From an uncultured Bacteroidales bacterium (GTDB taxonomy: Bacteria > Bacteroidota > Bacteroidia > Bacteroidales > UBA10428): DNA of 64,000 nt. Under the pieces are notes generated by a model. That model saw nothing but the letters and a program-made list of their open reading frames with translations. It was not told the origin of the DNA and made no database searches. Positions 38,870 through 55,668 of this stretch are shown here, piece after piece. The translations under genes and the position numbers were made by a program. Location of the stretch: the NCBI GenBank assembly GCA_963781805.1, contig CAWAHF010000004.1, positions 1,774,219-1,838,218 on the forward strand, read 5' to 3'. Numbering within the stretch: position 1 is the first letter of the stretch; every line of letters starts with the position of its first letter.

Positions 38870-38899
38870 CCTGTCTGTCTGCCTACCGGCAAAGGCAGG
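38870..38899. repeat. CCTGYC...GGCAGG REP-like hairpin
   Basis: CCTGTCTGTCTGCCTACCGGCAAAGGCAGG; related copies at 39222 and 40259. Confidence 0.55.
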
Positions 38900-39309: not shown

Positions 39310-39942
39310 TTATTCCTTCGTTCCCAAAATTCTTATCATCTCATCCGAAGTAACAATTTTTGCTCCCTTCGTTTCGAGTTCCAGCAATGTGCTGTTGAAT
39401 TTGTCCTCGCCTCCTACGGCTTTGGTGGCATCTTTTACTAGATAGGTGTTGTATCCCAGTTCCAGTGCATCAAGCGTGGAATATCTTACACAAATATCTG
39501 CTGCCAGTCCGGTAATGGTAAGCGTATCTGCTTTTTTCCAGGTAAGATACGCATGTAAACCTGTGGCTTTTTTGTGCAGGTTATCATAAAACCCGCTATA
39601 GCTGTCAATCCGGGCATCCGTTCCTTTCTTAATAATCGATGCTAACTTTTCCACATGAAGTTCATCGGCAAAGTTGGCGCCTGTGGTATGCTGCACGCAA
39701 TGATCCGGCCACAACACCTGTTCTGCCCCGTCAAGATCAACGATATCGCCCGGTTTTTTATTCGGATGATTTGAGGCAAAACTGCCATGATTTGCAGGAT
39801 GCCAGTCCTGCGTAGCAATTACCAGTTCGAAATATGGCTGCAACTTATTTACCACCGGAACAATGATATCGCCTTCAGCCACGGGTAACGAACCTCCCGG
39901 CAGAAAGTCGTTTTGGATATCAACCATCAAGAGTGCATTCAT
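39310..39942 (-). CDS. pncA: Nicotinamidase/pyrazinamidase
   Basis: VDIQNDFLPGG, TQDWHP, WPDHCVQ, KKG...DSYSGF, GLAADICV. Confidence 0.93.
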   Translation of the reverse strand: MNALLMVDIQNDFLPGGSLPVAEGDIIVPVVNKLQPYFELVIATQDWHPANHGSFASNHPNKKPGDIVDLDGAEQVLWPDHCVQHTTGANFADELHVEKLASIIKKGTDARIDSYSGFYDNLHKKATGLHAYLTWKKADTLTITGLAADICVRYSTLDALELGYNTYLVKDATKAVGGEDKFNSTLLELETKGAKIVTSDEMIRILGTKE

Positions 39943-40245
39943 AATTTCCTTAGTTATAGATTACCCTGATTTCTGTCTTTTAATAAATAACAATTGTGCC
40001 GGTTGAAAGGTTGTGATATTTCCTTGCCGTTTCATCCTTTTGGAATCTTATCTCCGGCATTTCAATAGATATCATGGGCTACGAGGTGTCGCCAGTAGGA
40101 TTGGGAGATTGGAGGTTCTTTCCGCCACCAAGGCGCTTATGCCCGAAGTTTGTACCCGGAATTAGCTTAACTATTAGGCTGATTATATTAATTTTGTAAT
40201 TATCTGTATTATAATAGTGTTATGTCAATATTATCTTGTCATATA

Positions 40246-40394
40246 GTCACCCTGAACTCCTGCCTGGCTGGCCTCGGCAGACAGGTGATTCAGGGTCTTT
40301 GGAAAATTAAGGAGATTAGCTTCGCGCTGAGCCTTTCAGGGTTCCGAATTACCTACCCGCCGCTTAAGCTTTGTCAGGCGGGAGTCCGGAATGA
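40246..40394. repeat. Convergent pair of REP-like palindromes, each with a nested hairpin insert
   Basis: GTCACCCTGAACT[27 bp]TGATTCAGGGTCT and TTCCGAATT[ACCTACCCGCC...GGCGGG]AGTCCGGAATGA. Confidence 0.65.
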
Positions 40395-40465
40395 ATTAAC
40401 CGTTTTTTAATACATGCCATAACACTAGTTCATTTTGATTTCAACATCAGTAAAAAATTTAAAAA

Positions 40466-40933
40466 ATGGCTAAAATAAGCGCTGGTATATTGGTCTACCG
40501 AAAAAAAGATAAAGAGTACGAAGTCCTGCTGGTTCATCCGGGGGGACCCTTTTGGGCAAAAAAAGAATTAAATGCCTGGTCGGTTCCAAAAGGTGAAGTG
40601 GAAGAACAGGAAGAAATCTTTAAGGCTGCATTACGCGAGTTTAAAGAAGAGACCGGATTCGAAGCTGTAGGTGAGTTTATAGCACTCACTCCGGTAAAAC
40701 AACCCAGCGGGAAGATGATTTATGCCTGGGCGGTGGAATCTGATTTTGAAGCAGAGAAAATCGTCAGCAATGAGTTTGAAATGGAATGGCCTCCAACATC
40801 GGGAAAATACAAAAGATTTCCGGAAATTGACCGTGCGGGATGGTTCACATTTGCCGTTGCACGTAATAAAATTGTGAAAGGCCAGATACCTATCCTTGAA
40901 GAGCTGGCAGAAAAACTTTGTAAAAGAATGTAA
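40466..40933 (+). CDS. NUDIX hydrolase
   Basis: HPGGPFW, Nudix box PKGEVEEQEEIFKAALREFKEETG. Confidence 0.9.
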   Translation: MAKISAGILVYRKKDKEYEVLLVHPGGPFWAKKELNAWSVPKGEVEEQEEIFKAALREFKEETGFEAVGEFIALTPVKQPSGKMIYAWAVESDFEAEKIVSNEFEMEWPPTSGKYKRFPEIDRAGWFTFAVARNKIVKGQIPILEELAEKLCKRM

Positions 40934-55266: not shown

Positions 55267-55269
55267 GAA

Positions 55270-55668
55270 GGTGGAGCTGCCGGGAGTCGAACCCGGGTCC
55301 AAACAGGAAACCCATAAGATTTCTACATGCTTAGTTTATTATTGATTTTCGTGAACAGGCCGGGAACAAACACCCAATCTGAACCTTATCCCCTGTTGTT
55401 TCGCCTGGTTATCGGGGTATTTACCAAGACTATCCCTGTTTTCGTGTGCCTCTTAATCCTGTCCCTCAAGGAGTAGGTACCGGAGAAGCAGCCTGTTCCG
55501 ATCACCTTGAACCGGAATTACGCCATAATCTACTGTTATTCGATTAGGCAGCAAGCGCGTAATTTGTTTCGCCACTTAATGTTTTGCACCGCAGTTTAAC
55601 GGGTTACTGTGCGTTGCCCGGCATGCTTGCTTACCTGTTTATCCTGCTGTCAAATCCATTTCAACCCC
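55270..55668 (-). ncRNA. ssrA: tmRNA
   Basis: 5' GGGGTTGAAATGGATTTGAC; 3' GGGTTCGACTCCCGGCAGCTCCACC; tag ORF at 55573-55544 = GETNYALAA*; -7 element TAATTTTG at 55688-55681. Confidence 0.96.

Follow-up and report, generated by a model that had tools for sequence, protein, structure and literature searches.

What kind of DNA arises when the loop of one palindrome is occupied by a second hairpin, and how does the second come to be there? The question is raised by a 149-nt region (positions 40246–40394) of a 64,000-nt stretch of DNA, analysed as a whole and called the window (C4:1774219-1838218), from the genome of an uncultured Bacteroidales bacterium (6.31 Mb, 36.7% G+C), where two palindromes facing each other are both interrupted in this way. 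The first-pass annotation, made from the letters alone, had described the two splits, named different hairpins as the inserts and proposed a structure-targeted insertion mechanism. We conclude that the region is probably a nest of three layers, in which a miniature inverted-repeat transposable element (MITE) of the IS630 type carries two inverted repetitive extragenic palindromes (REPs) of the SRM kind, each of which holds in its 5-nt loop a small inner hairpin, hereafter iHP. Coordinates prefixed with C4 are those of the contig, and five-digit positions those of the window.

The left unit consists of GTCACCCTGAACT (40246-40258), a 27-nt insert CCTGCCTGGCTGGCCTCGGCAGACAGG (40259-40285) and TGATTCAGGGTCT (40286-40298), and its arms ACCCTGAA and TTCAGGGT are 100% complementary (inverted repeat I11). 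The right unit is made up of TTCCGAATTA (40342-40351), a 31-nt insert CCTACCCGCCGCTTAAGCTTTGTCAGGCGGG (40352-40382) and AGTCCGGAATGA (40383-40394). That both palindromes are split at the loop by inner hairpins is borne out by the sequence and by empty copies with exact junctions. Of the insert boundaries first proposed, those on the left (40259-40285) stand, but the left edge of the right insert lies one base further right, at a junction set by the uninterrupted copies TTCCGAATCA^AGTTCGGAATGA (^ marks the insertion point here and below). A target duplication, which had not been obvious in the first reading, is indeed absent at both inserts. Folded as single-stranded DNA, the filled left unit has a predicted energy of -14.9 kcal/mol (z = -3.9), and the same unit with its insert removed one of -7.4 kcal/mol (z = -3.2). 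The layers are arranged as follows.

40214..40428, plus strand: predicted MITE copy (MITE-1), with a core of 155 bp and here 215 bp with its two inserts; ends aTAG...CTAG.
40214..40229, plus strand: left terminal inverted repeat, degenerate, aTAGTGTTATGTCAAT (from the copy alignment; inverted repeat I4).
40245..40258, plus strand: outer hairpin A, 5' half, with tag AGTC, stem ACCCTGAA and loop bases 1-2, CT.
40259..40285, plus strand: iHP-A, 27 nt, loop subtype A, present or absent among MITE copies.
40286..40298, plus strand: outer hairpin A, 3' half, with loop bases TGA, stem TTCAGGGT and a following C.
40299..40341, plus strand: central spacer of the MITE (from the alignment of copies).
40342..40351, minus strand: outer hairpin B, 3' half, reading TAATTCGGAA on that strand.
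40352..40382, minus strand: iHP-B, 31 nt, loop subtype B, reading CCCGCCTGACAAAGCTTAAGCGGCGGGTAGG on that strand.
40383..40396, minus strand: outer hairpin B, 5' half, with a degenerate tag ATTCATTCCGGACT against the consensus AGTCATTCCGAACT.
40413..40428, plus strand: right terminal inverted repeat, CATGCCATAACACTAG (from the copy alignment).

The outermost layer, which the first-pass annotation had missed, emerges from comparison within the genome itself. BLAST found about 33 related loci, and 29 full copies of 131-216 bp were recovered, whose terminal inverted repeats CTAGTGTCATGTCAA...TTGACATGACACTAG are common to three 1208-bp elements encoding a DDE_3 domain (PF13358, 94 bits) together with HTH_32 and HTH_29. 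Because it has the same ends as these elements, we assign the region to a MITE of the IS630 family. The copies start and end with CTAG, which fits the arrangement C-TA-[element]-TA-G as judged from the copy ends. MITEs derived from IS630 elements, such as Nezha in cyanobacteria, duplicate a TA target that typically lies within CTAG. The present element resembles them in its inverted repeats, which match those of a full IS630-family element, and in its CTAG flanks, and differs from them in having an interior built from other repeat families. By these features it would be a non-autonomous IS630-type MITE inserted at CTAG. In its centre, a 26-nt piece (TTAGCTTCGCGCTGAGCCTTTCAGGG, 40316-40341) is absent from eight copies; TTCAGGGT recurs at the end of this piece (40335-40342), where it matches the hairpin A arm for a third time (I12).

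The 1208-bp elements lie at C4:4061177-4062384, 6078399-6079606 and 6113545-6114752, and two of them are identical; one abuts a MITE copy, near remnants (C4:4060426-4060911 and 4064147-4064569) that resemble REP-associated tyrosine transposase (RAYT) genes. At C4:5574330-5575283 (L112 531-1484), five MITE copies form a tandem array with a 189-bp period and mixed insert states. A tie between this array and a nearby RAYT gene was considered and rejected, as the two are 2.3 kb apart with two unrelated genes between them.

The dispersal of the MITE bears on a quite different explanation, namely that this stretch of 149 nt acts as a structured RNA with a regulatory role, as leader or small RNA of the adjacent NUDIX gene, with optional expansion hairpins. 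The stretch lies 37-220 nt upstream of that gene, and its predicted fold as RNA is stable (-64.9 kcal/mol, z = -4.2), both of which speak for such a role. However, Rfam left the locus without a match, both when the whole window was scanned at gathering thresholds, which yielded the tmRNA at 55269-55668 and nothing else, and at E <= 10 over 39950-40500. In addition, some 30 copies of the unit are scattered next to unrelated genes, on either strand and with transposon ends. We therefore find a regulatory RNA hardly credible.

The middle layer also has a family of its own, a widespread and already described repeat that the first-pass annotation had not recognized as such. Outer palindromes A and B are inverted copies of one unit, with an equal layout in which the right unit, read on the minus strand, runs CCGAACT, insert, TGATTCGGAA and the left unit CTGAACT, insert, TGATTCAGGG. 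Across the genome, the family follows the pattern NGTCAY-NNNGAA-CTTGA-TTCNNN-RTC, and its stems covary (CCT/AGG, GCT/AGC, TCC/GGA and GCC/GGC). REPs with a CGTC tag have a stem of 8-9 bp starting with A-T and a loop of 4-5 nt (Di Nocera et al. 2013, PMC3733652), and the NTS/SRM hairpins of the Ssn GIY-YIG single-strand nucleases have a GTC tag before and a C after the palindrome (Chenal et al. 2025, PMC11893778). Both sets of features recur here: AGTCAC at 40245-40250, just 5' of palindrome A, agrees with the HGTC(WY) required of an SRM and with the NGTCAY of the family, and the 8-bp stem ACCCTGAA/TTCAGGGT encloses in empty copies the 5-nt loop CTTGA and is followed by C. The tag of unit B has decayed to ATTCAT in the studied copy. 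Checked by eye, the published SRM pattern HGTCWYN(0-2)YYVSBRHN(0-5)WNVSBRGN(0-2)RNCYNB is matched at the tag and the 3' tail and not at the V, S and B positions of the stem, because the outer stems are richer in AT; that pattern serves for searching and does not define the group.

The genome also encodes a candidate partner. A small, single-domain GIY-YIG open reading frame (C4:2891943-2892164; PF01541, 61 bits), whose relatives in the PDB are UPF0213 proteins, has hairpins of the outer family on both sides (2891421-2891790 on one, 2892261 and 2892301 on the other), which by sequence would be the bilateral arrangement that defines Ssn/SRM pairing. Over C4:2891421-2892325, eight outer hairpins stand in tandem beside this gene with a 50-nt period, and all of their loops are uninterrupted. 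We accordingly classify the outer palindromes, on their sequence features, as putative CGTC-tagged REP hairpins of the SRM/NTS kind. They share with the SRM/NTS group (which contains dRS3; PMC11893778, PMC3733652) the NGTC tag, the 8-bp stem beginning with A-T or A-C, the 5-nt loop, the trailing C, the covarying stems, the frequent head-to-head pairs and the flanked GIY-YIG gene, and differ from it in their AT-richer stems, in sitting within an IS630-type MITE and in that about one third of them hold a second repeat in the loop. The repeat is not confined to this genome: the exact empty 26-mer GTCACCCTGAACTTGATTCAGGGTCT occurs on more than 120 metagenome contigs of diverse environmental origin, almost always uninterrupted and usually near sister hairpins with other stems, and 228 of the 247 outer-family hairpins in a metagenome sample have the plain 5-nt loop. 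At several other metagenome loci (L125, L138, L164 and L199 among them), outer-family loops hold outer-family copies or longer hairpins, with nesting of up to three levels at L125.

The innermost layer consists of one family rather than of the two different hairpins first named. Read on the minus strand, the second insert aligns with the first as CCYGCC(TG)-variable loop-(C)GGCRGR-CAGG, and both belong to a family, iHP, of the form CCYGCCTG-loop-CRGRCAGG (20-33 nt), with a stem of about 10 bp that has a conserved C·A mismatch and T·G wobble and can pair in two registers. The likeness that had been noted between the second insert and a hairpin near ssrA holds for the loop motif GCATAAAGCTT, which they have in common, but not for the stems, which differ. 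For the 10-mer GGCGGGCAGG, 25 occurrences were counted where 0.9 were expected, and 20 of them fall within iHP-type hairpins; a long element bounded by iHP half-sites was not found, the 10-mer being almost confined to hairpins. Since the outer units are inverted copies of each other and their inserts align, both insertions occupy the same site in the same orientation.

This rule extends to the SRM loops elsewhere in the genome. Some 30 inserts found in such loops with a looser pattern, and in addition those at the right-hand sites of the MITEs, all lie at a single site, GAAYT^TRWTTC, which separates loop base 2 from loop base 3, and all point the same way with respect to the GTC tag. Three loop subtypes occur there, A (TGGCTGGCCTC), B (TGACAGAGCTTAAGC) and C (TCCCAGAGCTTTATGC). 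Subtype A is also found within outer hairpins that have other stems and lie outside MITEs (C4:1119888, 1856036 and 5362665), and the right-hand site of the MITE mostly holds subtype B, with C in the copies at C4:422399 and 4997364 and in a separate element at C4:5979789. One site thus takes different subtypes and one subtype occupies different stem variants, giving at least ten combinations of stem variant and insert subtype, all with one position and orientation. With the strict outer pattern, no insert length other than 0, 27, 31 and 32 nt was seen, and in our pattern searches the SRM loops of this genome had no occupant other than iHPs and no long element. The first-pass annotation had allowed that inner and outer parts might form one fixed repeat and never occur apart. 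They do occur apart, with 40 uninterrupted outer hairpins under the strict pattern and 57 under the looser one (such counts vary with the tolerances used), and with inner hairpins in unrelated contexts.

Filled and empty states can be compared directly among the 29 full MITE copies, of which nine carry both inserts, seven A only, two B only and 11 neither, so that iHP-A is present in 16 and absent from 13, and iHP-B present in 11 and absent from 18. The junctions are identical across all filled and empty copies. A tree of the MITE copies shows many changes of insert state, and in the maximum-likelihood tree the studied copy pairs with an empty one (C4:3944725). The tree argues less for repeated insertion than these changes might suggest: by parsimony on the backbone tree, A requires nine steps (shuffle mean 9.8) and B eight (shuffle mean 9.05), the states being scattered over it, and since gene conversion or precise loss would fit the same pattern, the scatter is not proof that insertion was repeated.

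Both of these processes need to be weighed. The composite of outer and inner hairpin may be ancestral, with the empty copies derived by repeated precise deletion, for instance through replication slippage; hairpins are prone to deletion, the states are all-or-none and the scatter over the MITE tree fits loss as well as gain. Yet the junctions (CT^CC...GG^TG) lack the direct repeats that slippage would use, empty outer hairpins are the majority here and nearly universal in the metagenome sample, and one site takes different inner subtypes. Alternatively, one or a few ancient insertions may have spread by gene conversion or homologous recombination among outer hairpins or MITEs, an explanation favoured by the uniform position and orientation of all inserts, by the 90-99% identity of the MITE copies, which is sufficient for conversion, by the presence of all four combinations of A and B, as recombination would give, and by rare recombinant MITE derivatives (C4:1104830 and 3540833). 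It has to contend with filled hairpins that differ in their covarying stems (CCT, GCT, TCC and GCC) and share a flank of just 5-6 nt, and with the existence of several iHP subtypes. What weighs further against both is the behaviour of iHPs away from the SRM loops.

A generic search for hairpins of iHP design whose joined flanks recur elsewhere in the genome returned exact empty paralogous sites for 76 iHP-like hairpins in at least 15 unrelated host sequences, among them a 16-copy repeat interrupted as GATAGCCACAAA^GRCACAAATTCAC. Such contexts, unlike the outer hairpin, are not expected from conversion among outer hairpins, and we regard spread by conversion or recombination as improbable. Coding sequences give the direction of change. 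In the studied genome, 22-nt iHPs stand in three RAYT coding sequences at the codons W-I-D^V-F (C4:4899461-4899482, 5213653-5213674 and 5221967-5221988), and the RAYT paralogs of the three genes are uninterrupted. Another genus provides two genomes in which the 22-mer CCTGCCCGTCCGGTCAGGCGGG directly follows the codon of the catalytic Tyr of RAYT genes (L108, G055:C96, at about 533-554, and L109, G050:C656), so that RAYT genes are interrupted at two conserved motifs in three genomes of two genera. The gene at C4:4899458-4899952 and that of G055 are otherwise intact. As the iHPs break genes that have intact paralogs, the polarity is that of insertion, and an ancestral composite with repeated precise deletion is unlikely. 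An intact RAYT gene of the studied genome (C4:5577593-5578174; L112 3794-4378) has 33 extra nucleotides in frame (LAKRSHDAIAS) immediately behind YIHNN, at the codon position that the 22-nt hairpin takes in the other genomes; the inserted DNA is not an iHP.

Inner hairpins also enter one another. An iHP is nested in the loop of another at C4:5812611-5812639, and a congeneric genome has one SRM loop with two iHPs in tandem. Together with its related copies (4402317, 3057876, 5644064 and 5811110), the former locus is nested four to five levels deep, the order running from a host sequence and the hairpin CCTGCCTAAAATCGGC..GATGCAGG within it through a palindrome GCCGAAGC^TTCGCGAAGGC and a 22-mer CCCGCCTGACCGGACGGGCAGG to a 29-mer, and copies of this nest that lack the inner layers also exist. 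Across the family, the stem motif CCCGCCTG-N4-18-CGGGCAGG was found in 35 of 77 genomes, with about zero matches for the reversed control, and the iHP loops are species-specific. Genome G062 has 26 copies of a 20-nt minimal hairpin, CCTGCCCGACGGCAGGCGGG. In a stretch of that genome (L110, G062:C177:41560-41800), this hairpin occurs three times with a 36-nt period inside a satellite of the TTTGGTGA type. In the studied genome, two iHPs (C4:3907770-3907790 and 6081673-6081693) lie directly before a T-run and resemble intrinsic terminators, and their paralogs have no hairpin.

To judge from these junctions, the iHPs are evidently discrete DNA insertions, precise and without target duplication, which have found their way into a wide range of sequences both here and in other genera of the family, and into the SRM loop more than into any other site. 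Their oriented, all-or-none states point clearly to several separate insertion events. That iHPs are independently inserted elements we consider very probable.

Is the target, then, a structure? Here the first-pass proposal of structure-targeted insertion fares unevenly: the fixed site within SRM loops agrees with it, but apices are not preferred across the 17-18 distinct host contexts, of which two or three have their junction in the loop of a strong hairpin, no more than random genomic positions. Three versions of the test for apex preference gave p = 0.035 (perfect stems >=6 bp) and otherwise p = 0.2-0.87. Because apex junctions are not more frequent than at random sites, general targeting of structure is not supported, and iHPs also lie in ordinary coding DNA. 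In the orientation defined by the SRM, most contexts have a T directly 3' of the insert; given the AT-richness of the genome, this preference is weak. At the SRM site, which is a loop, sequence and structure are inseparable as determinants. Hairpin-in-hairpin nesting does recur, despite the lack of a general apex preference.

The missing apex preference would suit another account, according to which insertion is random with respect to structure and inserts in loops merely survive, the loop being the only tolerated position in an SRM. Cleavage by SsnA persists when extra DNA is present at the loop position of an NTS (PMC11893778), and since the hairpin is cut with DNA in its loop, an SRM may withstand an insert there. 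By itself, however, survival predicts several loop positions and both orientations, when one of each is observed in at least ten independent combinations, and SRM loops in this genome hold nothing but iHPs. It leaves the uniform position and orientation unaccounted for, and we consider it distinctly improbable as the sole cause.

As to what moves the iHPs, we propose an enzyme that would act in trans on the folded single strand, namely a Y1 (HUH) protein, possibly a RAYT or a member of an IS200-like subclass, both of which the genome encodes. Candidates are a RAYT at C4:715295-715840 and an IS200-like protein at C4:4474061-4474528. Y1 chemistry would cut and rejoin without duplications and could permit precise excision, which would give the all-or-none states observed. 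The loop would be the sole part of the SRM to tolerate extra DNA, and insertions there would persist for that reason. In the genome 13 Y1 matches were counted, among them bona fide RAYTs, such as Y715 (NF047646, 101 bits), and IS200-like genes. The occurrence of REPs inside tnpA_REP genes of RAYT subclass 2.4 (PMC6006769) also speaks for a Y1 enzyme. Among the genomes of the family, a Y1 gene is present in all 24 with at least two iHPs and in 38 of the 53 others (p = 0.0036, without phylogenetic correction). In common with REPs, the iHPs form repeated palindromes that lie mostly outside genes, in genomes that also have a Y1 gene.

A number of results count against such a mover, and against RAYTs in particular. 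RAYT-like genes taken alone showed no correlation with iHP presence (p = 0.07-0.3), and G062, with its 26 copies, has no RAYT-like match. In a genome search, no gene bracketed by iHPs recurred; RAYT genes are bracketed instead by CTGGCGCAAGCGTCCGCTTGTGCC or CTGGCGCGCGTTTAGC... hairpins, and this RAYT-flanking hairpin is nearly confined to RAYT neighbourhoods. The iHPs lack the GTAG/GTGG guide of canonical REPs, their flanks vary, and no target tetranucleotide common to iHP sites was found. Nor do the iHPs look like palindrome-associated transposable elements derived from IS200/IS605, whose left and right subterminal hairpins are distinct and which insert 3' of a fixed tetra- or pentanucleotide, since the iHPs are single hairpins with 5' flanks that differ between contexts. 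With respect to replication no bias was seen: of 60 cases, 32 have the alpha orientation on the leading strand, a count that depends on an origin and terminus that cumulative GC skew placed implausibly. Movement of iHPs by a Y1 enzyme thus remains a tentative proposal, to which we give somewhat less than even weight. The fuller conjecture, that the iHPs, as single imperfect hairpins of 20-33 nt, would be among the smallest transposable DNAs, moved in trans by Y1 enzymes as folded strands whose C·A mismatch and T·G wobble mark the strand to be moved, with a preference for SRM loops and Y1 genes as targets, we consider rather doubtful.

The MITE copy itself lies between two divergent genes, both outside the element, and ends 37 nt before the start codon of the second.

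39310..39942, minus strand: isochorismatase-family gene (PF00857, E = 2.5e-23).
40466..40933, plus strand: NUDIX hydrolase gene (PF00293, E = 6e-14).

A usable orthologous empty locus was not found, the NUDIX matches in congeners being just 33-39% identical; the best relatives of a neighbouring gene are in metagenome-assembled genomes, at 80% amino-acid identity. At 38870-38899, 1.3 kb upstream of the region, there is a further iHP-like hairpin, CCTGCCTTTGCCGGTAGGCAGACAGACAGG on the minus strand, for which no empty site was found.

Each of the three layers has known relatives, namely IS630 MITEs, CGTC-tagged REPs or SRMs, and REP-like hairpins. To our knowledge, no transposase has been assigned to CGTC-type REPs. 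In cyanobacteria, Elhai and colleagues reportedly described in 2008 small dispersed repeats of Nostoc and its relatives that are 21-27 nt long, insert in the manner of mobile elements without an obvious transposase and nest in one another; the iHPs differ from these in phylum and sequence. Oriented, site-specific insertion into REP-type hairpins is also known from IS1397, ISKpn1, the IS110 family (IS621) and the Nf prophage recombinase in dRS3. Such elements are at least 1 kb long and have an enzyme of their own, unlike the iHPs. The dRS3 phage recombinase is mentioned in the account of the Ssn nucleases (PMC11893778).

The closest comparison is with the REPs and REPINs that are associated with RAYTs (Bertels & Rainey 2011, PMC3116915; PMC6006769), which the iHPs resemble as short, imperfect, GC-rich repeats with conserved stems and variable loops, in the lack of target duplication, in insertion into RAYT genes and in a genome with several RAYTs. 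They differ in having no GTAG/GTGG guide, in flanking no RAYT gene and in forming single hairpins and not doublets. For RAYT subclass 2.4, known from Bacteroidetes and cyanobacteria, insertion of REPs into tnpA_REP genes has been described as a hallmark (Quentin et al. 2018, PMC6006769), but the published insertions are in frame, whereas those of iHPs are 22 nt long and break the frame. A REP hairpin centred in a longer palindrome has been mentioned in passing for A. variabilis, T. roseum and H. neapolitanus (Di Nocera et al., PMC3733652). The iHPs share this central position; what differs here is the filled and empty sites, the fixed position and orientation, the subtypes, the nesting over multiple levels and the occurrence in Bacteroidota. 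In the searchable literature, we found no series of filled and empty sites for a family of 20-33-nt hairpins in Bacteroidota, no fixed insertion site for hairpins in the loops of Ssn-type hairpins, no frame-breaking hairpins at two conserved RAYT motifs in three genomes and no nesting several levels deep.

How REP-type hairpins spread is unsettled, and the question becomes testable in this genome, where the filled and empty sites of a 20-33-nt hairpin form a natural series with exact junctions, a constant position in SRM loops and a polarity made clear by interrupted genes. For annotation, such nests could be mistaken for structured RNAs. The Ssn-recognised hairpins, described in 2025, can ride in a MITE and commonly with a repeat in the loop, which matters for counting and modelling the motif. 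If the iHPs are indeed moved by Y1 enzymes, they would form a compact system in which the long-open problem of REP-type mobility could be tested, and two hairpin-recognising systems, Ssn with its SRMs and a Y1 enzyme with its iHPs, would be layered one upon the other.

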